A DNA stretch of 64,000 nucleotides, from the IMG/VR virus record IMGVR_UViG_3300024966_000001, positions 9,381 through 73,380 of that record; one strand, given 5' to 3'. The stretch is from a virus. A program made the translations under genes and the position numbers. Positions 1,747-64,000 of this stretch are shown here, in pieces. A model generated the notes under the pieces. That model was given only the letters and a program-made list of their open reading frames with translations. It made no database searches and was not told the DNA's origin. The first letter of the stretch is position 1. Each line of letters opens with the position of its first letter.

Positions 1747-2208
1747 ATGGCACTGGAGATATTTTTCAGAAAACTCTATGACAAGCTGGTACCCGCTGAT
1801 GAATACCAGCTGGAGCTTATGGAAAGCTTGAAAATGAACGGCGAGTACAAGGCTGTTTTAACCCAGCCGCGCAATTATCTATTTCATAAGAAATTCTTTA
1901 AGTTTTTAAATAAGTGCTATCAAAACTATGAGCAGCCGGAAGTTTTTTATCAGGACATTAGGGTGTTTAAAAGTTTTGATCGGTTTCGCGATGAAATCAT
2001 CATTGCTTGCGGGTATTGGGAATTGGGTCTTGATAAGAGAAACAGAGTTATCCAGGTAGCTAAGTCAATCAGCTTTGCAAAGATGGATCAGGTTCAATTT
2101 GAGCAACTTTTCAGCAAAGCCATTGACGTTATTTTAGCTGATTATTTGCCGAACTATGGGCGTGAAGATATGGATGCGCTGGTTGCTGAGATTTTGAGGT
2201 TTTCGTGA
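1747..2208 (+). CDS. DUF1367 / NinB-like protein
   Basis: PRNYLFHKKFF, FDRFR..IIIACGY and AKSISFAKMDQ motifs. Confidence 0.75.
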   Translation: MALEIFFRKLYDKLVPADEYQLELMESLKMNGEYKAVLTQPRNYLFHKKFFKFLNKCYQNYEQPEVFYQDIRVFKSFDRFRDEIIIACGYWELGLDKRNRVIQVAKSISFAKMDQVQFEQLFSKAIDVILADYLPNYGREDMDALVAEILRFS

Positions 2209-2459
2209 TGAGCACAGCAACGGAAAAACGGCACATGGGAAGGGTCGCCGCGCTTGGCTGTTTGATTTGCCAGCAGCCAGCCAATGTGCATCACATTCGC
2301 ACAGAGCGGATCAAGAGCGATTTCCTGGTGATACCGCTTTGCAGAGAGCACCACCAAGGGGATTTTAGTATTCACATGAGTAAGCGTCAGTTTGAGGGTG
2401 TTTACGGCTCTGAGTTACATCTTTTGGCTCAGACGATAGAGAGATTAACAAAAATATGA
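2205..2459 (+). CDS. Ref/DUF968-like HNH-type recombination nuclease
   Basis: CLIC...HHIR...VIPLC.EHH. Confidence 0.7.
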   Translation: MMSTATEKRHMGRVAALGCLICQQPANVHHIRTERIKSDFLVIPLCREHHQGDFSIHMSKRQFEGVYGSELHLLAQTIERLTKI

Positions 2460-2461
2460 AT

Positions 2462-2491
2462 TTGACATGCGCCTGTAACCACGGCTATCCT
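2462..2491 (+). promoter_or_regulatory. Sigma70 promoter of antisense module 1
   Basis: TTGACA 2462-2467, 18-bp spacer, TATCCT 2486-2491. Confidence 0.65.
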
Positions 2492-2496
2492 TTACT

Positions 2497-2730
2497 CACT
2501 GCCCCACATTGGGCAGGCGGGTTTTTGCAGGCTCGGTTGGAACTGGCGCAAAGAAGATATGCGTCAACAGGCGTATGTCTTTTTTTATGCCCTCACTTTT
2601 TATGGTGGGCGGCGTATTTGGGAGGCGAAAGCCTGGCGGCCAGTTCCCGCTCTGCAAACCCGGATATGTTGTCCACCGCCCAAGTTTTTGCAGGCTTGTT
2701 CGGTGGCTTTAATTCACTGAACTGGAGTCT
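2497..2730 (+). ncRNA. C4/IsrK-like antisense RNA leader, module 1 (ash-type region)
   Basis: Seeds CCAGTTC (2640) and CTGCAAA (2652) are complementary to GAACTGG and TTTGCAG upstream (2540, 2524) and downstream (2719, 2687); hairpin plus T-tract near 2555-2588. Confidence 0.6.
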
Positions 2731-2734
2731 GAAA

Positions 2735-2812
2735 ATGAATAACCAATCCCAAGTTACGCCCGTAATCCGCGTAGAAAACACCGACATCCCCGTAACCGTT
2801 TACCAAGCAGAT
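2735..2812 (+). pseudogene. Truncated N-terminus of an ORF6N antirepressor (MNNQSQVTPVIRVENTDIPVTVYQ)
   Basis: Similar to VENIQIPVVVYQ at the start of 3045..3773; similarity stops at the next TTGACA promoter. Confidence 0.5.
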
Positions 2813-2813
2813 A

Positions 2814-3040
2814 TTGACAGCCCGCAAAAACCGGATGATACTGACCGCACTACAACGTTAAGCGGCCAACCGCACCCGACAGCCTTTGCGGTTTTTTTAC
2901 GCCCAAAATTTCATTATGGGCGGGACGATAGGCCAAAATACAAGACCTTCGGGGAATATGCCAGCCGTCTTAACGCGGTAGTTGAGTCCCGCCTTCCCAC
3001 TACTAATGGGAAGGTTTTCAAACTAAACGTTAAGGAGACC
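2814..3040 (+). ncRNA. Sigma70 promoter plus C4-like antisense leader, module 2
   Basis: TTGACA 2814, 17-bp spacer, GATACT 2837; CCGCA..TGCGG-T7 attenuator; seed CTTAACG (2969) matches CGTTAAG at 2856 and at 3028 (over the SD). Confidence 0.65.
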
Positions 3041-3044
3041 TTCA

Positions 3045-3773
3045 ATGGTTGCTCAATCTAGTCACACCCAAAATCCGTCCACCGTTTGCGTGGAAAATAT
3101 CCAAATTCCGGTTGTTGTTTATCAAGATGCTCGTGTAATTACCACGGACTTGCTTGCTCAGGTCTATGGTTCAGAATCAAGACGTATAACAGAAAATTTC
3201 ACTCGCAATCAAGACCGCTTTGAAGTGGGCAAGCACTATTTCAAACTAGAAGGCGAAGAACTAACACGCTTTAAGCGTAGTAGTCCGCAAATCTCAAAAC
3301 AAGCTCGTCATTTAATCCTTTGGACCGAACGCGGCGCAGCCCGCCACGCCAAGATGCTCGACACCGACCAAGCCTGGGACGTGTTCGACAAACTGGAGTC
3401 GGCTTACTTCGAGCCGACAAAAGCGCTACCCACACAGGAACCCGCCAAGCTGCCGCCTGCCGACGACCTCCCTCCCGACGTTTTAGCGGTGATTGACCAC
3501 CGCGCAATGGCGATGTCTATCCGGCACTATGACAAATACAGACAAGAATTGCGCAAGGCGATCAAAAGCTGGGGGCAACATCTGACCGGGCAAATGCTGG
3601 TCGAATTCGTCAAAACCATCGAGATGAAGGACAGCCAGCTGGTTATCGTCCACAGTGACACGTTGTGGCGGCTGTCCACCCGGCTGTCCACGCTGGAAGT
3701 CGTGCAACGCGAAGCGCTGGATGCCGTGCATACGCTGGAGCAAGAAACAGGAAGGTCCTGGTACGGAAGGTAA
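3045..3773 (+). CDS. ORF6N-domain phage antirepressor-like protein
   Basis: RVITTDLLAQVYG...NF.RN..RF..GKHYFKLEGEEL...LWTERGAARHAKMLDTDQAW; SD AAGGAG. Confidence 0.85.
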   Translation: MVAQSSHTQNPSTVCVENIQIPVVVYQDARVITTDLLAQVYGSESRRITENFTRNQDRFEVGKHYFKLEGEELTRFKRSSPQISKQARHLILWTERGAARHAKMLDTDQAWDVFDKLESAYFEPTKALPTQEPAKLPPADDLPPDVLAVIDHRAMAMSIRHYDKYRQELRKAIKSWGQHLTGQMLVEFVKTIEMKDSQLVIVHSDTLWRLSTRLSTLEVVQREALDAVHTLEQETGRSWYGR

Positions 3774-3884
3774 GGAATATTAACGGCCAGGGATGGCTAT
3801 ATGAAAACAGTTTAAATAGTTTGTCAAGTAATTAATTTTAAAGGATAAGTTGTATAATATTGGCTTAAAAATAAAGGATAAAAC

Positions 3885-4379
3885 ATGCTCAATAAAGTTA
3901 TGTTAATTGGCCGATTGGGAGCTGATCCCGAAGTTCGCTACATGCCGAGCGGCGGAGCCGTTACCACAATTCGCATGGCAACGTCGAGGCGCTGGAAAGA
4001 TAAGCAATCGGGTGAGCGCCGCGAAGAAACCGAATGGCATAGGGTGGTGTTTTATAATCGTTTGGCTGAAATTGCCGGCGAGTATTTAAAAAAAGGCAGT
4101 CAGGCTTATGTTGAGGGGCGTATTCGCACTCAGAAATGGCAAGGTCAAGACGGTCAGGATCGCTACACCACGGAAATCATTGCCGATACCATGAATATGC
4201 TGGATAGCCGCAGCGGCGGCACTTCCGAGTTTGGCGGCGAACAGCCGCAGGGCGGATATTCCGCTCCCGCATCAAGACCGGACAACCCGCCCCAGCCATC
4301 GGCGCCGCAAAGCAGTTCCGGCTCCATGCCGCCGCCACCGCCAAATTATGACGATTTTGATGATGATATCCCGTTCTAG
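3885..4379 (+). CDS. ssb: Single-stranded DNA-binding protein
   Basis: [19 protein letters not shown]...TEWHRVV; C-terminal DFDDDIPF. Confidence 0.97.
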
Positions 4380-4391
4380 AGGTCACCTAGC

Positions 4392-4481
4392 ATGGTTCTT
4401 TTAATGGTTTTTATATGGGCGGCTCTTAGTAATCATTGGATGGTTGCTTTGGCGCTGCTTTATTGCATGCTGACATATTAA
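4392..4481 (+). CDS. Small hydrophobic peptide (29 aa)
   Basis: GAGGT SD; MVLLMVFIWAALSNHWMVALALLYCMLTY; fills the gap between ssb and the resolvase. Confidence 0.35.
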   Translation: MVLLMVFIWAALSNHWMVALALLYCMLTY

Positions 4482-4482
4482 T

Positions 4483-4914
4483 ATGACTAAAGTTATCGGC
4501 ATTGACCCAGGCAAGACAACTGGTTTCGCTCTTTGCATTGATGGTCAGTTGACGCATGTTATACCTACTGATTTCTGGGGGTGTATTAGGCTGATTGATG
4601 ATTGCCCGGATGCAACTATAGTTGTCGAACTGCCATTAACAAAGCACGTTTGGCACAACGGCGCTACATCAAAGAGAGCAGTACAGCGTACTGGCGTCAA
4701 TGTTGGGTCGTGTATCCGGGAGGCCGAATTGATAGTCGAGTATCTTCAAAAAAATGGCCGCAACTACATTACTCAAAAACCCAAAGGAAAATTAAATGCT
4801 GAGTCATTTAAAAAAATAACTGGATGGAAAGGACCGACAAACCAGCATGCAAGAGATGCAGCGATGCTGTGCTTTGGGTTAAAAAATTTAAATAAAGTAC
4901 AGGTGAGTCAATGA
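4483..4914 (+). CDS. RuvC-like Holliday junction resolvase
   Basis: VIGIDPGKTTG, IVVE, NQHARDAA acidic triad pattern. Confidence 0.8.
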   Translation: MTKVIGIDPGKTTGFALCIDGQLTHVIPTDFWGCIRLIDDCPDATIVVELPLTKHVWHNGATSKRAVQRTGVNVGSCIREAELIVEYLQKNGRNYITQKPKGKLNAESFKKITGWKGPTNQHARDAAMLCFGLKNLNKVQVSQ

Positions 4915-5114
4915 TCGATCAGAATGAGTTCGCGCATAACGGCGTGGCCTATGTGGCCGAATCATCGCCATCGGTAGGCAGTGTATGTTTTGGCTGTGCA
5001 TTTTTTGATTATGGTTGCTTTTCGCCTGTAGTTGATAGTTATTCGTGTAGATCAAGCGTTAGAACCGATAAGCGCGACATAATCTGGAAAAGAAAGCTTG
5101 GTGCTCATGAGTAA
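4911..5114 (+). CDS. Hypothetical Cys-rich protein
   Basis: CFGCAF...C...R.DKRDIIW; ATGA overlap with the upstream gene. Confidence 0.6.
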   Translation: MIDQNEFAHNGVAYVAESSPSVGSVCFGCAFFDYGCFSPVVDSYSCRSSVRTDKRDIIWKRKLGAHE

Positions 5115-5277
5115 CGATCTTGACACGCATTGGTTCAGGGCTAAGTGCGATGCCAACTATATCCCTGCAAATGCCGACAAAGAGCACGACTTTATCGAGC
5201 GTGTTGGCATGAAGAATGATAGCGGCACTAGCTTAGAGGATTCGAGAAACGAAGCTTGGAAGGAGTGTTTTGCATGA
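5107..5277 (+). CDS. Hypothetical protein (56 aa)
   Basis: MSNDLDTHWFRAKC...DFIERVG...; coupled to both neighbours. Confidence 0.5.
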   Translation: MSNDLDTHWFRAKCDANYIPANADKEHDFIERVGMKNDSGTSLEDSRNEAWKECFA

Positions 5278-5522
5278 GCAGGGTTATAGTTATTGGAACT
5301 GGCATATCTGCGAACGTAAGAGCTTTGATGTTGGCTAAATTATCGCTTATTTGCATAGTTCAAGAGCAAACCAAAATTGATAGCGAGGTTGGGGCACCGG
5401 TGATTATTAGGTGTTTTGATCATCATGACATCGATGCTTCATCTTTTATCAAAAAAAAACACTGTGATGGCCGTGGTTCGTGGCCCGATACTCGAAAAAG
5501 ACATAATTCCAGGAAAAAATGA
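5274..5522 (+). CDS. Hypothetical protein
   Basis: ATGA overlap and AGGAG SD. Confidence 0.5.
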   Translation: MSRVIVIGTGISANVRALMLAKLSLICIVQEQTKIDSEVGAPVIIRCFDHHDIDASSFIKKKHCDGRGSWPDTRKRHNSRKK

Positions 5523-5760
5523 TAGAAACAATAATTGTATTAACCGGTACGGCTGTACTGGTTTATTTTTGGGTTAAGGAGTGGTTGAGTGAGCATGAAG
5601 CCAAAAATTAAAAAGCAGTACGGCAGCTGGGTATGTGTGTGCGATATGGGCATTATTGGGGAAGGCGACATACCGATAATCGCGTTTCTTGATTGGCAGT
5701 TAAAGCGTAAAAAACAAAGGTAAAACAATTTCTGGTTTATTAAAGGAACTTAATCTGCTT

Positions 5761-6810
5761 ATGGTAAGTCAATCCGTTATTGATGATGTAAATGAAACCG
5801 TTCAGTTGATTATTGCTGATATGGTTATTGCAAGTGGCGATGATAACAGAGAGTATTTTGAACGACGTTTTTACCGGGAGCCAGGTATTTACCGGTTACC
5901 GGAACCAATACAGCCGATCATGGTTGATATGGCGCGAAAGATGGGTACCGTACCGGCAATCAAAGCCATGCAACGGGCTTTTACAGCGCATGGCTGCTAT
6001 TTAAAGCCTGATGGCATTATTGGGCCGATCACTGTTTCGGTGTCAAACCTGATGTACCCGGTTTACGGACAACAAGTAAAAGATGCATTGGTAAAGGAAG
6101 TCGTTGAATTTTATGCCCGCAGGTCCGATAAAAAAACAGCTCATAAGCCAATTCTGGATAACCGGATTACCGCGGCATCGTTGAGGGCTGAGCAGGTCGA
6201 AATGGTGAAGGTCATGGGGTCAAGATTCAAGGAAGCCCGTGAGATTTGCAATATGTCGCAGATATTGGCCGCCAAGGAACTGGGTTACTCAAACTCATCG
6301 AAGCTGGCCAAGATCGAGGGTAGCACTGACACCATTTCAGTGCCGCTATGGGTAATACGCCGAGCGGCCAGGTTGTACGATGTATCTATTGATTTCTTAT
6401 TCGGGGAAACCGACGACTGGGAGCGGGATATAACCGCTTCCCGGCAGAACAATGTTGCGCGCTGGCTGGTTGAGTACGGAAAACAGGCTGACGCGGCCAA
6501 GATAAGCGCCTTCCTGGTTCTAAACAATAAGCTTTCAGCGCTGGAAAAGGCGGTCGATGTAGCGGTTAAGCGGTCAAATGAGAATTTAACTGTGTTGCGG
6601 CGCATTCAAGAGCTGAACCCGGAATTTGATGAGCTGAAGGGTGGTTCCAAGCTTGTATTATGTGCTCAAGAGTCAGTGGTTGATGCAAATAAGGCGATGG
6701 CCGAGCTTAAGCGGTTTCATTGTTTGATTGAGGCTTCTCATTCAAATGGGGTTGTGTTGTTCAAGAACGTGGATCTTTTTGATTATAAGGATGATGGGTT
6801 TGATTACTAA
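5761..6810 (+). CDS. XRE-type HTH regulator with an N-terminal peptidoglycan-binding-like segment
   Basis: RFKEAREICNMSQ..AAKELGY.NSS.LAKIE...AARLYDVSIDFLFG; N-terminal AIKAMQRA....LKPDGIIGPIT. Confidence 0.7.
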   Translation: MVSQSVIDDVNETVQLIIADMVIASGDDNREYFERRFYREPGIYRLPEPIQPIMVDMARKMGTVPAIKAMQRAFTAHGCYLKPDGIIGPITVSVSNLMYPVYGQQVKDALVKEVVEFYARRSDKKTAHKPILDNRITAASLRAEQVEMVKVMGSRFKEAREICNMSQILAAKELGYSNSSKLAKIEGSTDTISVPLWVIRRAARLYDVSIDFLFGETDDWERDITASRQNNVARWLVEYGKQADAAKISAFLVLNNKLSALEKAVDVAVKRSNENLTVLRRIQELNPEFDELKGGSKLVLCAQESVVDANKAMAELKRFHCLIEASHSNGVVLFKNVDLFDYKDDGFDY

Positions 6811-6822
6811 GGTTTGTTTTTA

Positions 6823-7650
6823 ATGGCACGGCTAACTAAACAGCAATGGTCCGATGCCCGCAAGGTATGGGAACTTGACCCGCGTGAAGGCCATCAGTGG
6901 CTTGCCGATGATTTGATTGGTAAGGGCTTTGATGTAAACCGGGTAGCCATTGCCAAGGCTGCAAAAAGACAGGAATGGGCTAAGGTCACTCAGGGCGAAA
7001 AAGTCACTGAAAGCGTCACTCAAAAAGTCACTCAGAGTGACAAAAAGTCACTTAAAAAAGTTACTACTAAAAAAACAAAAACGGTACCAGTTATTACCGA
7101 TGCGGTGTGGGAAGAGGTAGATGAAAAGACCGAGCGATTGCATGGGAATTCTCTTTATAAACATGAATATGCTGAGCAAGTTTATAAGTTGTGCTTGTTG
7201 AGTGCTACTGATGTTGAGATAGCAGACTTTTTTAGAGTGTCTGAGCAAACAATTAACAACTGGAAGCATGGTTATCCCGATTTCCTTGAGTCCCTGCACC
7301 GTGGCAAGCTCATGGCTGATGCCAATGTAACGGACAGGCTTTATCAGCGAGCTATGGGCTATTCGCATGCTGATGAAAAGATATTTAATAACATGGGTGA
7401 GATTGTCAGGGCTGAAACCATTAAACACTATCCTCCCGACACTGGCGCTATAAAGTTATGGTTGTTCAATCGTCGACCTAAAGATTGGAAAGCCAACGTT
7501 GAGGCTCCTATTGAAATCAATCTGAATGTATTCCCAGCAAAAGAAGTGCTGGATGGTATTTATGAAAAAGCGCTTGAAGAAGCAGCCAAGCGTGATCAAA
7601 AGCTAATCGGCAGGCGTGAGCGGCTGGGTATATTGATCGAGCACGATTAA
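6823..7650 (+). CDS. Terminase small subunit (PacA-like)
   Basis: ATDVEIADFFRVSEQTINNWK..YPDF...KHYPPDTGA..LWL.NRRP..W; directly before terL. Confidence 0.85.
   Translation: MARLTKQQWSDARKVWELDPREGHQWLADDLIGKGFDVNRVAIAKAAKRQEWAKVTQGEKVTESVTQKVTQSDKKSLKKVTTKKTKTVPVITDAVWEEVDEKTERLHGNSLYKHEYAEQVYKLCLLSATDVEIADFFRVSEQTINNWKHGYPDFLESLHRGKLMADANVTDRLYQRAMGYSHADEKIFNNMGEIVRAETIKHYPPDTGAIKLWLFNRRPKDWKANVEAPIEINLNVFPAKEVLDGIYEKALEEAAKRDQKLIGRRERLGILIEHD
6985..7065. repeat. Cluster of GTCACT hexamers inside terS, candidate pac site
   Basis: GTCACT at 6985, 7003, 7015, 7027 and 7047; inverted AGTGAC at 7036; GTTACT at 7060. Confidence 0.6.
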
Positions 7651-9176
7651 TGTCCGATAAGCGCGTACTACTTCCTGAAGATCCGCGATGGCTTCCGTTT
7701 TGCGAGCGATACGCGGGCGACTTGGAAAAGTTCGCCATTGAAGTGCAGGGGGTTATTCCATCCTCGCAACAAGTTGAGTTATTTGCAAGTGTTTCGCCGT
7801 CACGGTCACGCACGTCGGTGGCTTCTGGTCATGGGACTGGAAAAACCTTTTCAATCGCCAATATCGTACTTTGGCATCTTCTCTGTTACCCGATGTCCGT
7901 AACATTGCTCACGGCAAACGACATGGACCAGCTGAAGGTAACGGTATGGAAAGAAATTGGCATAGCACTGGAGCGTATCAGGCGAGGGCCGCATGGATGG
8001 ATTGCCGAGCACGTTGATATTTTAGCCGACGCTACGTGCCGTGTTGTTGGTTTTGAGGCGGTATGGTTTGTAGAATCTAAGACAGCCAATGAAAAGACTG
8101 CAAACAAGATGGCCGGGCGCCACGGCGAATGGCTGTTAATTATCGGCGACGAAGCATCCTCATTGCCCGAGATTGTGCTGACAACGCTCTCAGGAGCACT
8201 TACTGAGCAGCACAACCGGATGATGTTGACCAGTCAGCCGACCCGTAACGCCGGTTTTTTCTACCGAACACACAATGACCTTTCAAGCAATAACGGCGGC
8301 GAATGGACATCGTTAGTATTTGATTCGTTTGATTCTCCGTTTGTTAGCGATGAGTCGCTTATGGAACTGTGGAATCAGTACGAGGATGACGAGCGTAATG
8401 TCAGGTTGCTTGGCCGGTTTCCACAGGATTCATCAAAGCACATGATGAGCCGGGCTGTTGCTGAGTCAATGTACACGCGAGGCCGTATTATTCAAGATAA
8501 TGAGAATTACGGCTGGCTTTCCCTGGGTGATATTGCGTCTGGTGAGGGGTTACGCGATAAGTCGGCAAACGTCATCGCAAAGGTTGTCGGTTATGGCGAT
8601 ATTGGCCCGGATGCGCGGCGGGTAGAGGTCGTCATCATCCCGCTGTTGACCAATAAAATACGCTCAAATCAGTTTGCGTGGTCAATGGTCGACAATGGTT
8701 CTGATTTTCATAATATTACCTATACGGTTGACTCGGGTGGTCTTGGTATTAATGTGTGCCAGGATCTCGAAGATGCCGATAAGGTTGTTCACCGGGTCAA
8801 CTGGGGCAATCCTTGTTTCAAGAAAAGCAATAAGGATCGATACCTTAATCTTAGGGCTCAAGCCATGCACCAAGCGGCTAGGGCGGCTAAAGAGGGGCGT
8901 TTATCTGTACTGACTGTTGATTTTAAGAACGTAATGCTGGATCAGTCATCGCGCATACCGAAAGACTTTACCGATAAGGGGCGTATTCGAGTGCCGCCCA
9001 AGGGATCTAAAGAATGGGATGGCCTGGGCAGTCCGGATTTGTGGGACGCAGTGTGCTTTGCGTTTCTTGAGAACGTAAATTACATGGTTTGTGAGAGCGA
9101 TAAAGGCGGAGATGGGATTACGGCAGCCGACACAGCCAAGGCCGAGGCCGCGAATATGTTTGCTGATGTGGCTTAA
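7650..9176 (+). CDS. Terminase large subunit (PacB-like)
   Basis: Walker A SVASGHGTGKT, Walker B LIIGDEA, nuclease motifs LGDIA and SPDLWDA. Confidence 0.93.
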   Translation: MSDKRVLLPEDPRWLPFCERYAGDLEKFAIEVQGVIPSSQQVELFASVSPSRSRTSVASGHGTGKTFSIANIVLWHLLCYPMSVTLLTANDMDQLKVTVWKEIGIALERIRRGPHGWIAEHVDILADATCRVVGFEAVWFVESKTANEKTANKMAGRHGEWLLIIGDEASSLPEIVLTTLSGALTEQHNRMMLTSQPTRNAGFFYRTHNDLSSNNGGEWTSLVFDSFDSPFVSDESLMELWNQYEDDERNVRLLGRFPQDSSKHMMSRAVAESMYTRGRIIQDNENYGWLSLGDIASGEGLRDKSANVIAKVVGYGDIGPDARRVEVVIIPLLTNKIRSNQFAWSMVDNGSDFHNITYTVDSGGLGINVCQDLEDADKVVHRVNWGNPCFKKSNKDRYLNLRAQAMHQAARAAKEGRLSVLTVDFKNVMLDQSSRIPKDFTDKGRIRVPPKGSKEWDGLGSPDLWDAVCFAFLENVNYMVCESDKGGDGITAADTAKAEAANMFADVA

Positions 9177-9177
9177 T

Positions 9178-9448
9178 TTGACAACTGCTATAGGTGCGGC
9201 TATGCTTTGTCTCGGAGTCTCGAAATCTCCTCTCAAAGCGGAACCCGCACCCGAAAGACCATGCGGTATTTTTTTGCCTTGCATTTTTCAGATTATCGAT
9301 CAATGTTGGGGATAGGCTAATACAAGACCCGAAAGGGAAATAGGCCTGACTGTCTTTGAGCAGTTTCGAGTCCCCGACACCAAACGGAATAGGGGGTATA
9401 TGGATAATCCACATACCCCTTTAATAATCGAAAATAACTCAAGGAACC
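9178..9448 (+). ncRNA. Sigma70 promoter plus C4-like antisense leader, module 3
   Basis: TTGACA 9178, 17-bp spacer, TATGCT 9201; seeds CTTTGAG (9354) and TTTCGAG (9364) match CTCAAAG (9232), CTCGAAA (9219), TCGAAA (9428) and CTCAAG (9438). Confidence 0.65.
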
Positions 9449-9451
9449 ATC

Positions 9452-10471
9452 ATGACCACTCAAACATTAACCATCAATTTCCACGGCACTGATTTATTCA
9501 TCGTTGAACACGACGGACAGCCTTATACTCCAATGAAAACCATCGTTGAAGGAATGGGTTTAAATTGGGCAAGTCAGTTTGTAAAACTGAAATCAAATGA
9601 ACAAAGATGGGGTATTGTGAAAATCGCAATCCCCACCCTTGGCGACATGCAAGAGGCTATATGTATGCCTTTGCGCAAACTAGCTGGGTGGCTATCAACA
9701 ATCAGCCCAAACAAGGTTAAGGCAGATTTACGCGATACCATTATCTATTATCAAAATGAATGCGATGATGTCTTATGGAATCACTGGACAAAAGAACATG
9801 TTCAATACGGCCTAAAACAACTCCCAGAACCTAAAACCAAAAAAGCCCTGCCCGGCGGACTGACTCTTGAAATGCAGGACGAAATCAAAGCTCTGATCAA
9901 AGAGCGCGTCGAAATGCTACCGCAAGAGAAATGGCGTGGTGCATCAATGCAGCTTTGGGGTAGCATTAAAAAGAAATTCAGCTTAACCAAAGAGCAATCT
10001 TACAAAGATTTATCGCCAGAGCATTATGCCAGCTGCCTTTCCATGCTTACCAGATTGGAGCTAAAAGGCGACCCACTACTTCACGTCACGCCGCTGGAAC
10101 TTGCCGCCCTGGTAGATGAGCGGGTTAAGGCGATTGAGGGCGAATTATTGCCCAAAACAAAGCCCGTGCAATACAACAGCATCACACTAAACCTTGTACC
10201 GATTACCGACGGCAAGATGAAGCGCTTTATGGTAACTCAACATCCTGAGGGTGGGATGGATTTTTGGGCGGTCGGTGACGATAAGAAAATCATGACCGAC
10301 GAGCAAATGATCTTGCATTTACAAAATAATAATTATGTCGTTGTCGAGCGCACACCCGGCGGCATGACCCGTATGGTTGCGCACTATTTGCCTCATCAGG
10401 TCTTGCCGGTTCTATTACGAGCTATTGGTGAGCGAATTGAAAGAACTGAAACGGGTAAATTGCAGGCTTAA
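9452..10471 (+). CDS. P22_AR N-terminal-domain antirepressor-like protein
   Basis: FHG..L..VEHDGQPYTPMK.IVEGMGLNW.SQF.KL...CMPLRKLAGWL.TISPNKV...YQNECDDVLW. Confidence 0.88.
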   Translation: MTTQTLTINFHGTDLFIVEHDGQPYTPMKTIVEGMGLNWASQFVKLKSNEQRWGIVKIAIPTLGDMQEAICMPLRKLAGWLSTISPNKVKADLRDTIIYYQNECDDVLWNHWTKEHVQYGLKQLPEPKTKKALPGGLTLEMQDEIKALIKERVEMLPQEKWRGASMQLWGSIKKKFSLTKEQSYKDLSPEHYASCLSMLTRLELKGDPLLHVTPLELAALVDERVKAIEGELLPKTKPVQYNSITLNLVPITDGKMKRFMVTQHPEGGMDFWAVGDDKKIMTDEQMILHLQNNNYVVVERTPGGMTRMVAHYLPHQVLPVLLRAIGERIERTETGKLQA

Positions 10472-59487: not shown

Positions 59488-61824
59488 ATGCTTGGCTTAT
59501 CGCCGTTTGGTGCTTCGCCATTTGGCGGCGAGCCTGATGACATAATAATTGGTATAGCCGGCGGTGCTGTTAGTGTTGCCAGCGCTACTGGTTCGGCTAC
59601 CGATAAGCTAAGCCTATCCGGTTCCGCTACAGCAACGGCGACAGACTCCAGCACCACATCGCTCAAAGTTTCGGCAGCGGGTTCGGCCGGTGCCGTTGCC
59701 AGTGATGGTGGCGTTGCTGTTGCGGTAGACAGCGTCAGAAGCGCCAACATATCGGCATCTATGTTTGGGGCGTCATCGTTTGGTGCGGAACCATTCGGTG
59801 CGGAGGGAGAAGGCGTTATCAATGGGTTTGACGGCCTCTTCGGAAGTGTTGCGAGTGCGGCAGGGGCAACCACAATAACCCTCGGTATATCCGGTTCTTT
59901 CGCAGCAACGGCGAATGAATCCGGCGTAGCATCGATAAGCCTATCAGCGGCGGGTTCCGTCACTTCTGTTTCGAGTGATACGGGAGCCGTAAAAAACACT
60001 CTCGGAGTATCTGGATCTGTCGCATCATCATCGTCGGATTCCGGCGCAGTATCGCTAAAAATCCCCCTCTCGGGTTCTTCCGCTTCCGTTTCCAGTGATG
60101 CAGGAGTCGCCACAAATACCCTCGGCGTATCCGGTGCAGCAGCAGCTATGGGTTCTGATGCAGCGACACTCGGCGTATCCATAGGTGGTTCGGCAACTTC
60201 CGTTTCAAACGATAGTGGCGCCGCGGTAATTATTGATAGCGTTACTTGTGCCAGCATATCGGCTTCAATGTTTGGAGCGTCGTCATTTGGGTCGTCGTCA
60301 TTCGGTGCTGAGGGTGATGGTGTAATAAATGGTTTTGATGGCAGTGCTAACAGCATTGCCAGTGGTTCCGGCGTTGCCACCAACACGCTCGGATTATCCG
60401 GCTCGGTAACAGCAACGGCGACGGATACCGGTGCTTTAGCAATAGCTGAGGCATTAAGCGGATCGCCAACCGCCATTACCACCACCACTGGCACGGCTGT
60501 CGCTGTCGATAGCGTCAAGAGCGCAAGCATATCAGCCGCAATGTTCGGTGCTTCATCATTCGGGGCGATGTCGTTCGGCTCTGAAGGCGATGGCGTAATA
60601 AATGGCTTCGATGGTGTTTTTGCTTCCTTTGCCAGCGACACTGGTGCCGCTACCGTTGCTCTGTCTATATCTGGTTCGGGTGCATCGGTTGCGACGGATT
60701 CCGGAGCGCCGGTGGTCGTAATATCTACGAGTGGATCGGCTACCGCTGTTTCAAGCGATACCGGCACTGTCACCAATACGAATAGCTTATCCGGATCTAG
60801 CGCGGCGATAGCAACGGATTCCGGCACGGCGACACTCGGCATATCCCTAAGTAGCACGGCTGCTGCCACAGCCAGCGATACCGGTACCGGTATTGCCGTT
60901 GATAGTATTTCCTGCGCCAGCATATCGGCTTCAATGTTTGGAGCGTCGTCATTTGGTAGTTCATCATTCGGCGCTGAGGGTGATGGTGTAATAAATGGTT
61001 TTGATGGCAGTGCTAACAGCATTGCCAGTGGTTCCGGCGTTGCCACCAACACGCTCGGATTATCCGGCTCGGTAACAGCAACGGCGACGGATACCGGTGC
61101 TTTAGCAATAGCTGAGGCATTAAGCGGATCGCCAACCGCCATTACCACCACCACTGGCACGGCTGTCGCTGTCGATAGCGTCAAGAGCGCAAGCATATCG
61201 GCCGCAATGTTCGGTGCTTCATCATTCGGGGCAATGTCGTTCGGCTCTGAAGGCGATGGCGTCATAAACGGCTTCGATGGTGTTTTTGCTTCCTTTGCCA
61301 GTGACACTGGTGCCGCTACCGTTGCTCTGTCTATATCTGGTTCATGTGCATCGGTTGCGACGGATTCCGGAGCGCCGGTGGTCGGCATATCCGCGAGCAG
61401 CTCGGCCGGTGCCGTTGCCAATGACGGCGGCGCTGTAACAATTGCGAAAAATTTGCTTGGCGGTGCTGAATCCATAGCAACGGATACTGGACATATAGCA
61501 AGGCAAAATTTGCAAGGTGATGCTCAGACAGATTCTGAGTCCTTGGGCGAGGTACAATTATCTATCTCGGTTGAAGGGGGTTCCGCTTCCTCCAATTCTG
61601 CCACTACTGGAAATTTAACGGAGATTATTCGCAGTGCAAAAAGCGTAACTCCAGTAAGGACGGCAATTAGTGTAACGAAAAAACTAAGCGCAAGAAGTGT
61701 AATGCCGGTAAAAAATATAATCAATGTTGCGTCAAAATTAAGTGCTATTGACACTACACGCCAATACAGCGCCACAAGTCATACAATAATAAGAAGTTTA
61801 AGGATATTTGATGTCGCAGCTTGA
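59488..61824 (+). CDS. Large Ser/Ala/Gly-rich repeat virion protein
   Basis: MLGLSPFGASPFGG start; five MFGASSFG..(S/P)FG.EG.GVINGFDG units. Confidence 0.75.
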   Translation: MLGLSPFGASPFGGEPDDIIIGIAGGAVSVASATGSATDKLSLSGSATATATDSSTTSLKVSAAGSAGAVASDGGVAVAVDSVRSANISASMFGASSFGAEPFGAEGEGVINGFDGLFGSVASAAGATTITLGISGSFAATANESGVASISLSAAGSVTSVSSDTGAVKNTLGVSGSVASSSSDSGAVSLKIPLSGSSASVSSDAGVATNTLGVSGAAAAMGSDAATLGVSIGGSATSVSNDSGAAVIIDSVTCASISASMFGASSFGSSSFGAEGDGVINGFDGSANSIASGSGVATNTLGLSGSVTATATDTGALAIAEALSGSPTAITTTTGTAVAVDSVKSASISAAMFGASSFGAMSFGSEGDGVINGFDGVFASFASDTGAATVALSISGSGASVATDSGAPVVVISTSGSATAVSSDTGTVTNTNSLSGSSAAIATDSGTATLGISLSSTAAATASDTGTGIAVDSISCASISASMFGASSFGSSSFGAEGDGVINGFDGSANSIASGSGVATNTLGLSGSVTATATDTGALAIAEALSGSPTAITTTTGTAVAVDSVKSASISAAMFGASSFGAMSFGSEGDGVINGFDGVFASFASDTGAATVALSISGSCASVATDSGAPVVGISASSSAGAVANDGGAVTIAKNLLGGAESIATDTGHIARQNLQGDAQTDSESLGEVQLSISVEGGSASSNSATTGNLTEIIRSAKSVTPVRTAISVTKKLSARSVMPVKNIINVASKLSAIDTTRQYSATSHTIIRSLRIFDVAA
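60250..61383 (+). repeat. Near-identical internal duplication of about 470 bp, offset 666 bp
   Basis: 60250-60717 matches 60916-61383 with few substitutions. Confidence 0.9.
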
Positions 61825-62125
61825 AGAATTTGTCCATTTAGGATGCATAAATACCATCGAATTATCCTTGCTCGTCGATGAGGCTGTAATTACTCATACA
61901 TCAATTACACGATGCCAGATAAAAATCGGCATCGTCTTGATAGATAGCGACATACTACCCGATGCATTTGATTTTACACATCCAGAAAAGCTTATTCTGA
62001 AATTTGGCGATGTGGGACTTACAGAGGGTGAATACCAGTCGAAACTTTATGTGTTTGAGGTTAATACTGAAGGTCGTATTTTCTGGTGCGACCTGAAGAT
62101 AACGGTTATTGATGATGGTTTTTAG
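61811..62125 (+). CDS. Hypothetical structural protein
   Basis: AGGA SD; last gene of the rightward operon. Confidence 0.55.
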   Translation: MSQLEEFVHLGCINTIELSLLVDEAVITHTSITRCQIKIGIVLIDSDILPDAFDFTHPEKLILKFGDVGLTEGEYQSKLYVFEVNTEGRIFWCDLKITVIDDGF

Positions 62126-62242
62126 TTTGCTTGTCGATATAGGCACACAAATCGGTGTAGTTTACGGTTTTTAGGCATGTAGACACCTAAAATGGCGTCT
62201 ACATCGCGTTAGGCCTCGCCACCGAAGCAGCGGGGCCGGTTG

Positions 62243-62944
62243 TTAATCTCGTCCGTACCACGGCATCCCTGTTTCTTGCTCCAGCGCATTAATTGAGCTT
62301 AATGCTTTCTTTTGCGCTATATCGAGGTAGGCAAGGCATGATGTCAACTGCCACAAGGTATCTCGGTGGACGATGACCAGTTTACTGTCGGGCAGGTCTA
62401 TATGCTGGATGAACTCCACCAGCTTTTGCCCTTCCAGGTCTTTGCCCCATTTCCGTATCGCTTCGCGTAACTGCTCTTTGATCTTGTCGTATTGGCGCAG
62501 GCTCAAGGTGTGGGCGCGGCGCTCGATGGCGGATTCTACTTCTTTAGCAAATGGTCCGGCAGGCGGCAAGGTTTTGGCTGTTTCCGTAGCCTTGCCGTGC
62601 AGTTCGCTTTCCATGCGATTGAAGGTGGTGATGTAGGCTTCTTTCCATTGCGCGGCTTTTGCGCCAGTGAAGCCCATCGCCAAGAACATAAAACCGTCTC
62701 GGGTGATTTCGTACATGGTTTCTTCGCGGCTGGCGTTCTTACCTCCTACGACTTGGTATTTGCTAACGCCAAAATTGGCGGCAGCAAATTCTGGCGAGCA
62801 TTCCAAACTCTCAATAGCTCGTAAAACTCGATAATGAGCTTTGCCAAAATGTTCGGCAATTTTCAGCGAAGTAGTTTTAATTTCACCGTTGATGATGGCG
62901 AGTTCTGGATTTAGTTCGGGCGTGGTTTGGGGCGTGGTATTCAT
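62243..62944 (-). CDS. Rha-family phage regulatory/antirepressor-like protein
   Basis: TTSLKIAEHFGK.H..VLRAIESL.CS.EF...NF...MYEITRDGFMFLAMGFTG.KAA.WKE.YI..FN.ME. Confidence 0.9.
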   Translation of the reverse strand: MNTTPQTTPELNPELAIINGEIKTTSLKIAEHFGKAHYRVLRAIESLECSPEFAAANFGVSKYQVVGGKNASREETMYEITRDGFMFLAMGFTGAKAAQWKEAYITTFNRMESELHGKATETAKTLPPAGPFAKEVESAIERRAHTLSLRQYDKIKEQLREAIRKWGKDLEGQKLVEFIQHIDLPDSKLVIVHRDTLWQLTSCLAYLDIAQKKALSSINALEQETGMPWYGRD

Positions 62945-62945
62945 G

Positions 62946-63208
62946 ATTGCGACCTTTAAAAACGAGTTTAAAACCCGCCTCCAAACGATGCCAATCATAA
63001 GGAGACGGACTGAACGAAGTTGGCATACCGAGGTCGCACCCGGCCACCCTTGCGGGTGCTCCATCCAGCCCGTCATAACTGGGGGCCGTGCGTTGGACAC
63101 AAAAAAACCGCAAGGTTGCGGCTGTGCCGCGACATTCAGGATGCCAATCCCGCCTGCCCAATGTGGGGCAGTGGGTAAATGGTAGTCTTGTTTTATCGCG
63201 GCTGTCAA
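62946..63208 (-). ncRNA. Sigma70 promoter plus C4/IsrK-like antisense leader, module 4
   Basis: TTGACA (63208-63203), 18-bp spacer, TACCAT; same 25-nt 5' end as module 1; seeds TGCGACC and ATGCCAA match GTCGC and TTGGCAT upstream and downstream. Confidence 0.65.
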
Positions 63209-63225
63209 TATCATGTGTTTTCCAA

Positions 63226-63347
63226 GCCTAACAAGTCGGTCAAAGGGACTGGCCGAGCTGTGGCGGTTTTAAAGTTCAGTGGTGGTTCAATCGTTCGGGC
63301 TTCGTTCAGCGTCCGTGTCCGGCCAGCCCCTTACCGTGGCGTTAGGC
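63226..63347 (+). other. attC recombination site (122 bp)
   Basis: R'' GCCTAAC, L'' GGTCAAAG, arms AAGGGACTGGCCG / CGGCCAGCCCCTT, L' CCTTACC, R' GTTAGGC. Confidence 0.8.
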
Positions 63348-63381
63348 CCCGCCACCGAAGCAGCGGGGGCGGTTGTTAAAT

Positions 63382-63872
63382 TTACGCCGCCAATTTACTC
63401 AGCAGCTCCGATTTTTTGACCACGATATAGCCGCGCTCCTGGGTCATGTATTTAATCCATTGCTGTTCGTTTAATGCGATGGCATCCAGCGCCACCGGCG
63501 TTAATTGGGGCTTCATGTTGTCGGGGTTGAACGACAACAACCAGCGCGATTGCCATAACATGCTTGCCGCCAATCCGGTAATGGTCTGCTCATTCATCAC
63601 AGGCCATGCCGGAGGTGTTACCCCTGCCTGCTTCATGTCAGCATGGCAAGCGTCCAGGTGCGCGTTGATGGCCTCGCGGGCTTCGTGGCGGTAAGCGTTG
63701 TCGGTCAGGAACGGGTCGGGTTCTTTGTCCAGCAGTTCCCCTTCAATCGGCAGGCGGCTAAGCAAGCTCAGGATGTTGACAAAGTTATCAGGGCTTACCT
63801 CTTTGTAAGTACAGCCAAATTTCTTTTTGATCGCGCTCCACTGCTTGATGATTGCTCCGGCCTGTTTTTCCT
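63382..63872 (-). pseudogene. 3' part of an antirepressor-like gene interrupted by an IS
   Basis: Frame is open to the IS junction: KEKQAGAIIKQWSAIKKKFGCTYKEVSPDNF..ILSLLSRL..EGELL, homologous to the middle of 9452..10471. Confidence 0.75.
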
Positions 63873-63874
63873 TA

Positions 63875-64000
63875 GAAGCTGTTTAAAAACCTAACAAATT
63901 CCGCGTAAAAGACGATGTACCTCAGTAATTTTGATAAATACTTCGGCCGTATCGGTTAGGCGCTCATAATCCTTGGAAAGCCGTCTGGAGTTTCCAAGCC
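63875..64000 (-). mobile_element. End of an IS5-family element (IS1031-like) with transposase C-terminus 63891..64000
   Basis: LGNSRRLSKDYERLTDTAEVFIKI...LLRGIC*; end GAAGCTGTTTAAAAAC next to a TTA target at 63872-63874. Confidence 0.8.

Follow-up and report, generated by a model that had tools for sequence, protein, structure and literature searches.

What is a putative integron recombination site doing at the late end of a phage genome, and what do the genes beside it encode? The question was raised by a 64,000-nucleotide (nt) stretch of DNA, hereafter the window, which covers positions 9,381 to 73,380 of the virus record IMGVR_UViG_3300024966_000001. An earlier reading of this sequence (the original prediction) had placed two integron cassettes with RNA-regulated antirepressor genes near its right end. 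We analyzed this region and conclude that it is probably an integrase-less integron platform at the end of the late block of a temperate, Methylobacter-type phage, loaded with inverted, self-expressed antirepressor cassettes. The conclusion is carried by the anatomy of the region, the membership of its recombination sites in the attC and attI families, the recurrence of its cassettes elsewhere, and the complementarity between a C4-type RNA and its target words. The platform is predicted to consist of an attI-like site, cassette 1 with its own attC, and cassette 2, which is broken by an insertion sequence (IS). Its features are as follows (aa, amino acids; UTR, untranslated region).

62126-62215, plus strand: attI-like site (profile R1, motif), ending in the GTTAGGC core at 62209-62215, where cassette 1 starts
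62216-62242, minus strand: stem-loop 3' of gene 1, with a 9-base-pair (bp) stem, a UUCG loop and no U-tract; a copy of direct repeat D1
62243-62944, minus strand: antirepressor-like gene 1, 233 aa, with an N-terminal Phage_pRha domain and a C-terminal domain common to antirepressor-like proteins
62945-62997, minus strand: 5' UTR with two C4 target words, complementary to single-stranded parts of C4
62998-63080, minus strand: C4-type antisense RNA (Rfam RF01695)
63101-63172, minus strand: leader with a1/b1-like and isrK-like 5' hairpins and an intrinsic terminator at its end (Rfam, terminator scan)
63208-63179, minus strand: sigma-70-like promoter, TTGACA-18-TACCAT (consensus scan, 10 of 12 positions)
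63226-63347, plus strand: attC of cassette 1, 122 nt (covariance model, folds, arm likeness), whose R' core at 63341-63347 opens cassette 2
63348-63381, minus strand: stem-loop 3' of gene 2, the second D1 copy
63382-63876, minus strand: 3' part of gene 2, about 164 aa, P22_AR-type antirepressor-like (PHROG, alignment), the 5' part being lost to the IS
63870-64000, no strand assigned: end of a high-copy IS, with a terminal inverted repeat and a transposase C-terminus (minus strand), inside which the contig stops

The 122-nt element belongs to a family of attC sites found beside integron integrases

A reference set of 13 attC sites was collected from arrays that start beside the integron integrase gene intI in related genomes. 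Since the consensus of an alignment of all 13 sequences kept the R-box pairs only, the covariance model (R2) was built from four of the 13 sites (three genomes, one length class), and it is type-specific rather than a general attC model. A finder combining regular expressions with folding was also tried, became too noisy once loosened, and was replaced by covariance models. Both strands of the window were searched with R2, and the single match at E<=10 was 63226-63347 on the plus strand (93.6 bits, E 3e-28). The element folds as R''/spacer/L''...L'/spacer/R'; the outer stem has 7 bp, the spacers are unpaired and the inner stem is long. Its two extra bases (C and A) lie in the 5' arm of the plus strand, the same arm as in the reference sites. 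The arms are almost base for base those of four intI-adjacent sites, and the changes in the inner stem are paired. The well-formed 122-bp attC of the original prediction is thereby confirmed. On the chromosomal array at locus L047 (complete genome G034), R2 scored 117-142 bits on the array strand versus 26-39 bits on the opposite strand, and R2 therefore separates strands. The top strand of the array corresponds to the plus strand of the window, and the minus-strand genes are therefore inverted relative to the array.

The two cassettes were also said to share their first 39 bp (37 of 39 identical) and a minus-strand UUCG hairpin. Both statements hold, the 39 bp being contained in the 41-nt direct repeat D1 (62206-62246 and 63339-63379, 95% identity). 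The repeat hairpin lies directly after the stop codon, and its 9-bp stem requires two G-U pairs, so that it fits minus-strand RNA alone. Core site and stem-loop together make up a common cassette start of 39-41 bp. Cassette 1 runs from 62210 to 63341 (1,132 bp). A palindrome at 63889-63962 (ACCTAAC...GTTAGGC) was considered as a short attC and rejected, its fold z-score being +0.5 against shuffled sequences and the segment itself being the IS end.

An attI-like site marks the start of the array

A sequence profile (R1) was derived from nine intI-adjacent attI sites in genomes of the host family. Its sole match in the window was 62177-62214 on the plus strand (15.1 bits, E 0.0015), and the match ends at the core where cassette 1 begins, the position required of the attI at the start of an array. 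The motif ACACC..GGYGTMTA, which adjoins the start of intI in nine genomes, occurs once in the window, at 62183. The roughly 90 bp between the last phage open reading frame (ORF) and the first GTTAGGC are homologous to the sequence beside the intI start codon in many host-family genomes, and 62126-62215 is homologous to an element of Methylobacter tundripaludum SV96 (locus L001, 2939-3030). Further R1 matches were obtained at the corresponding position of SV96 (E 7e-4) and in a metagenome contig (E 1.5e-4). IntI scored above the curated cut-off in 69 of 121 sampled host-family genomes. Both the attI-like site at 62177-62214 and the IS had been overlooked in the original prediction.

An initial alignment of 62126-62215 with the intI-side region of a metagenome-assembled genome (MAG) looked poor because the attI in that region is split by a 5-kilobase (kb) insertion. 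In this intI-bearing MAG contig (L013), the attI halves lie at 178-235 and 5323-5373, about 5 kb apart. Between them are two large ORFs in inverted orientation, one transposase-like ORF and one ORF of 149 aa, and the cassette array begins only past the second half. Elsewhere, an attI-like site was seen about 50 nt from a tRNA gene (metagenome contig L067, 2574-2806), and the attI-like site of SV96 stands directly behind a 416-aa integrase gene. The occurrence of the attI-plus-cassette unit in at least four different neighbourhoods hints that the platform as a whole may be mobile.

The cassettes recur, and one has a homologue in a chromosomal integron

The original prediction implied that other such cassettes exist. 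The core-plus-hairpin start, searched for by its 28-nt core, was found in 11 instances, two in the window and nine elsewhere: SV96, two Methylobacter MAG contigs, one viral contig (re-found in the metagenome scan), four further metagenome contigs, and the complete genome G034. The 28-nt pattern is present in two of 301 sampled host-family genomes. Because it occurs in SV96 and in a Methylobacter MAG, Methylobacter is probably the host genus of the phage. The left neighbour of the start was an attC by covariance model in 6 of the 11 instances and an attC read by eye in one; it was attI-like by profile in three and by motif only in one. On the promoter side, every complete unit terminates at another attC.

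A homologous cassette occurs in a chromosomal array of G034 (L047, 6600-8383), at a distance of 6.6 kb from an intI gene with a score of 496.9 bits. Its alignment with the window extends over 416 nt at 86% identity, beginning at 62207, at the GTTAGGC core, and the tail genes of the phage are absent from G034. On sequence comparison, this pairing is the pattern expected of a mobile cassette shared by a chromosomal integron and a phage. An array beside intI was seen for the homologue at L047 only, not in the record of the window. The cassette boundary lies at the G|TT of the core, the surrounding contexts vary, and homology breaks off at the core.

Cassette 1 encodes a Rha-type protein behind a C4 RNA

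Gene 1 matched Pfam PF09669 (Phage_pRha, E 1.7e-26), TIGR02681, and the Rha and anti-repressor families of PHROG. Its C-terminal portion (about 125 aa) is 45% identical to the ORF6N protein encoded at 3045-3773 (E 7e-40), in agreement with the shared domain that had been noted. The proposed promoter and C4-like RNA were also recovered, the former at 10 of 12 consensus positions and the latter at 62998-63080 on the minus strand with 59.2 bits (gathering score 45). The terminator scan placed an intrinsic terminator (stem 63123-63106 followed by a T-run) between leader and C4.

Two target words for C4 were found in the 5' UTR, UUGGCAU at its start (62994-62988) and AGGUCGCA in the Shine-Dalgarno region (62955-62948). 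The second word sits 6-13 nt 5' of the AUG and is complementary to the loop of the second hairpin of C4. In three of three homologues the UTR-start word is an exact complement of the seven unpaired C4 bases that separate the second hairpin from the closing stem, and in the MAG homologue (L003) this word and C4 carry two compensatory double changes. Duplex energies of C4 with the UTR were no better than those of shuffled sequences (111, 135 and 76 of 300 equally good), and the assignment of C4 targeting uses the exact words and the covariation, with the energies left aside.

The original prediction also held that the first 25 nt of the C4-like RNA are identical to a phage module at 2497. The identity is correct (63172-63148 versus 2497-2521), whereas the location is not: the 25 nt lie about 70 nt upstream of the Rfam C4 element, within the a1/b1- and isrK-like leader. 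This leader hairpin is identical in both phage modules though their flanks have diverged; in SV96 (L001, about 4003-4029) the same hairpin keeps its loop and has one stem pair changed on both sides. The hairpin could serve a phage factor as a binding site (an operator or antitermination hairpin) in addition to being a C4 target.

Metatranscriptome contigs matched 62549-62818 and 62990-63153 with no differences, which is weak evidence of transcription as DNA carry-over is possible. In the metatranscriptome run X2, from the same habitat type, difference-free matches within 61912-63841 covered parts of the 105-aa ORF preceding the platform, the Rha gene, C4 plus leader, and gene 2, with the same possibility of DNA carry-over.

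Cassette 2 is interrupted by an insertion sequence

Each of the two units had been said to hold an inverted antirepressor-like gene. This is well supported for gene 1, whereas the likeness of gene 2 is moderate: it matched phrog_245 (E 3.7e-7) and also phrog_2812, it is 42% identical to residues 158-209 of the P22_AR_N protein encoded at 9452-10471 (E 1e-10), and it had no Pfam match. Gene 2 is cut at about 63870-63877 by the IS, and not by the end of the window. Contig depth was 49.8 before the IS and 870-1229 within it, and many different flanks were found at 63870-63875. The last 35 codons gave a weak match to DDE_Tnp_1_2 (E 0.017). In SV96 (L055, 1501-1905) an IS derivative of about 400 bp has the terminal inverted repeat at either end and lacks a transposase. 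In the small-share runs X3 and X4, most of the matched sequence was IS.

Antirepressor-type proteins are the common cargo

Cargo was examined in 10 of the 11 cassettes, the remaining contig being too short, and all 10 encode antirepressor-type proteins (Rha, ORF6N, ANT, AntA, Bro-N or P22_AR-like). Rha is carried by cassette 1 of the window and by a MAG (85% identity by tblastn), ORF6N by SV96 and a MAG contig (L003), AntA by metagenome contig L066, and Bro-N by metagenome contigs L067 and L070. The viral contig has ANT followed by a 92-aa ORF, the second cassette of the window has the P22_AR-like fragment, and G034 has the shared C-terminal domain, its assignment covering the C-terminal part. 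Leaders above the Rfam gathering score were C4 in five cassettes and sRNA-Xcc1, a small RNA (sRNA) family, in one (L004); an isrK leader also exceeded its gathering score in L066. On L066, two adjoining inverted cassettes were observed at 1782-7216, one with AntA behind isrK and C4 leaders and one with Rha behind C4, and the cassette beside them, in forward orientation, carries a gene for a C-5 cytosine methylase together with an ORF of 331 aa.

Two modules of the same design, with neither attC nor hairpin, lie in the early region of the phage. The first (2456-3773) has a C4-like RNA (42.6 bits) and an sRNA-Xcc1-like RNA (48.2 bits) before its ORF6N gene, and the second (9178-10471) has sRNA-Xcc1 (65.3 bits) before a P22_AR_N gene. 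They share with the cassette units the arrangement of promoter, leader, terminator and structured RNA, and may represent, together with the cassettes, before-and-after pairs for the birth of a cassette. From its placement, sRNA-Xcc1 looks like a functional counterpart of C4 for antirepressor-type genes.

The same units could be read as RNA-controlled toxic or abortive-infection modules that serve addiction or anti-phage defence rather than as antirepressors, by analogy with self-promoted inverted cassettes known for array stabilisation or host defence; this is a serious rival, though we consider it rather improbable. It draws on a report that describes an inverted, self-promoted, sRNA-led cassette of the toxin gene symE as the commonest in Xanthomonas integrons, and chromosomal integrons as stores of defence cassettes (10.1101/2025.06.18.660453), and on weak matches of ORF6N relatives to the candidate defence family PDC-S05 (E 4e-9 to 8e-7). 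Against this, PADLOC assigned no family to either window protein, the best matches of both are phage antirepressor and Rha families, and the leader-plus-gene design also occurs at the two non-cassette places in the phage early region. A lead from a language-model look-up, to a Bro-N/BstA_C cluster, scored 0.83, below the tool's own reliability line.

The array probably lies within a phage

The window is the final part of the 73,380-bp virus record, and both end at the same position. The record is linear, with an estimated completeness of 83%, and has the layout of a temperate phage: rdgC and an S24-type repressor gene (record positions 3105-3881) at the left end on the minus strand, then, to the right, genes for replication, for a methylase and for structural and tail proteins as far as window position 61824. 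A 778-aa tail-fibre-like ORF (59488-61824) is followed by the last ORF of the late block (61808-62125, plus strand, 105 aa), which is directly 5' of the platform; this 105-aa ORF belongs to no family (no Pfam or PHROG match) and had no relatives among the viral contigs searched. Within the 778-aa ORF a stretch of over 100 residues is present twice, as a long internal duplication, and a 663-aa antisense ORF that overlaps it entirely is probably a composition artefact of this duplication. When a phage collection was searched with the region, short matches to the Rha gene were obtained and nothing further.

Alternatively, the cassettes could lie outside the phage, the record then being a prophage with host flank whose phage end falls between 62125 and about 62177, beside or within the remnant of a chromosomal integron. 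We hold this to be unlikely. In its favour, the record is linear, incomplete and without an integrase; the 5' two-thirds of the model are missing from the attI-like match, as though cut; the attI-like site of L067 is close to a tRNA gene; and a published study describes a prophage that ends at the boundary of a chromosomal attC cluster (PMC9892861). On the other side stands a MAG contig (L014) with attC sites and a Rha cassette, followed after about 2.5 kb by rdgC and rusA; these two genes are 76-80% identical to the start of the record and have the same orientation. When the two records are taken together, with the tail genes on the side seen in the window, the array falls between late block and early-left genes and has phage genes on both flanks. 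The attI-like-plus-antirepressor unit moreover recurs in two other settings, next to recT/recE together with a phage integrase (L003) and next to an integrase plus phage-like genes (SV96). Depth was flat at 49.8 over 61700-63855 in the probable source run, a single contig figure and hence weak.

Points that weigh against an antirepressor cassette platform

Several observations weigh against our conclusion. With regard to the integron, no intI or other tyrosine recombinase was found across the 73,380-bp record (0 matches to TIGR02249 or PF00589), which extends to the whole record what had been stated for the window; an intI adjoining an attI, as in a complete integron, is thus absent from a record estimated to be 83% complete. 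What is visible in the window is one attI-like site and a single attC before the contig stops in the IS within cassette 2. The R1 match is modest and spans model positions 70-107 only, the crossover-proximal third. No excision joint was present in the contigs of four public runs, in which rare forms would be invisible. A joint of 62286 to 63149 that was considered as an excision product proved to be the paralogous first module of the same phage. Of the proposed integron-mobilised modules, attC-bounded and C4-regulated units are thus supported by comparison, and movement was not seen in these contigs. Homologous units differ in attC type (122 nt in the window versus about 87-90 nt in SV96 and L003), and the link between gene and attC is therefore not simple. 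The gene of the G034 cassette is frameshifted between its N- and C-terminal domains and shares its cassette, without an intervening attC, with two small overlapping ORFs in forward orientation (7687-7959 and 7844-8254) that resemble a toxin-antitoxin pair.

With regard to the control region, the leader scores are below their gathering scores, both for isrK (43.9 bits versus 50) and for c4-a1b1 (RF03163; 26.3 bits, E 5e-4, versus 46.7). The stretch from C4 to the Rha start codon, 53 nt long, contains no icd-like ORF, a UUCG hairpin without U-tract is not a classical terminator, and the label "antirepressor" is taken from family names alone.

It is highly improbable that chance palindromes, terminators or an unrelated repeat family account for the 122-bp element and the repeat: the fold z-scores of the element by itself are modest (-2.1 and -1.4) and no integrase is near, but a model made from integrase-adjacent attC sites scores it at 93.6 bits on one strand only, its arms are near base-for-base those of such sites with paired inner-stem changes, and homology to the chromosomal cassette opens at the core site.

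Proposed working of the platform

From these observations a working of the platform can be predicted, including recombination, the action of C4, antirepressor activity and the identity of the repressor targeted. Cassette 1 has the full make-up of a P1 immI-type control unit, composed of promoter, a1/b1-like leader, terminator, C4, target UTR, Rha gene and UUCG stem-loop. Each cassette, being inverted with respect to the array, would drive its own expression. In a cell that already holds the cassette, most transcripts would end at the leader terminator, and C4 made from read-through transcripts would block translation of the gene. The protein would then be made for a short time only, for instance on entry of the DNA into a cell that lacks C4, and its target would be a repressor of the same or of some other prophage. 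Cassettes would be shuttled between chromosomal integrons and the attI of the phage by an integron integrase of host origin. The original prediction also named prophage induction and RNA-based immunity as candidate functions.

As a more tentative extension, the phage may keep a docking attI that borrows the stress-induced integrase of the host and swaps RNA-gated antirepressor cassettes, the integron being a shared library of "immunity-breaking keys", with at least six N-terminal domains, in a competition among prophages.

The functions of integron cassettes are mostly unknown, and recent work assigns many of them to anti-phage defence. The present cassettes instead form a coherent family with phage regulatory genes, on phages and in a chromosomal integron, and this double occurrence points to two-way gene traffic and to a role in conflict between prophages or between phage and host. 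Cassette and non-cassette versions of one control module offer a comparison for how genes gain an attC. The attI defined from nine genomes, together with its copies distant from an integrase, provides concrete substrates for recombination assays.

Comparison with known systems

The immI region of phages P1 and P7 consists of c4 RNA, a and b target sites, icd and ant, and C4 blocks the ribosome-binding site. Cassette 1 resembles P1 immI in its promoter, C4, targets at the ribosome-binding site and antirepressor-type gene, and has candidate a1/b1-like hairpins upstream that score below the gathering score. It differs in that there is no icd-like ORF, a terminator stands between leader and C4, the protein is of the Rha type and not P1 Ant, and the whole unit is bounded by integron recombination sites.

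In the IsrK-orf45-anrP module of Salmonella Gifsy-1, a short terminated sRNA forms the 5' end of an antirepressor-like mRNA. A leader with a terminator is common to both, and isrK was matched at 43.9 bits in the window and above the gathering score in L066. Unlike that module, the window has a match below the gathering score and a C4 as well; the regulatory logic may be analogous. In APSE phages, sRNA-Xcc1 is reported to precede an ORF6N gene and C4 to precede ant (10.1101/2020.03.17.996009).

Integron parts have been described in phages before, and one of the published arrays, located in a prophage, lacks an integrase and has its own attI (Qi et al. 2023, PMC9892861). In the Shewanella prophage M16-3, that article describes a cluster of attC sites lacking an integrase (CALIN, by definition at least two attC sites within a few kb), which starts with an attI of its own and is bordered by genes for tail, capsid and terminase; the cargo reported there comprises methyltransferases and unknown ORFs. 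Such phage-borne CALINs are alike in having an attC/attI array without integrase within or beside phage structural genes. The terms "antirepressor", "anti-repressor" and "Rha" are absent from its main text, the supplements lying outside this check. In contrast to the arrays described there, all cassettes seen here are inverted, RNA-regulated antirepressor units, and a close copy stands in a chromosomal integron of the host family.

The commonest Xanthomonas cassette is described as symE with sRNA-Xcc1, inverted (10.1101/2025.06.18.660453). As in our cassettes, a gene with a structured sRNA is inverted relative to the array promoter and self-expressed, and the relative on L004 likewise uses an sRNA-Xcc1 leader. 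Differing from the symE cassette as described there, the present units have an antirepressor-type gene, a C4 with target words and a phage-borne platform. A literature search on integron cassettes with antirepressors and on C4 with integrons returned, within the library covered, no title on such cassettes, supplements being outside its scope. The original statement that no system like this had been described is nonetheless too strong in view of these two sources: phage-borne attC clusters and inverted, sRNA-led cassettes are already published. The type of platform and the regulatory design are known; what is new, as far as seen, is the family of cargo genes, the fact that it occurs on phage and chromosome alike, and the copy of attI on a phage of this group.

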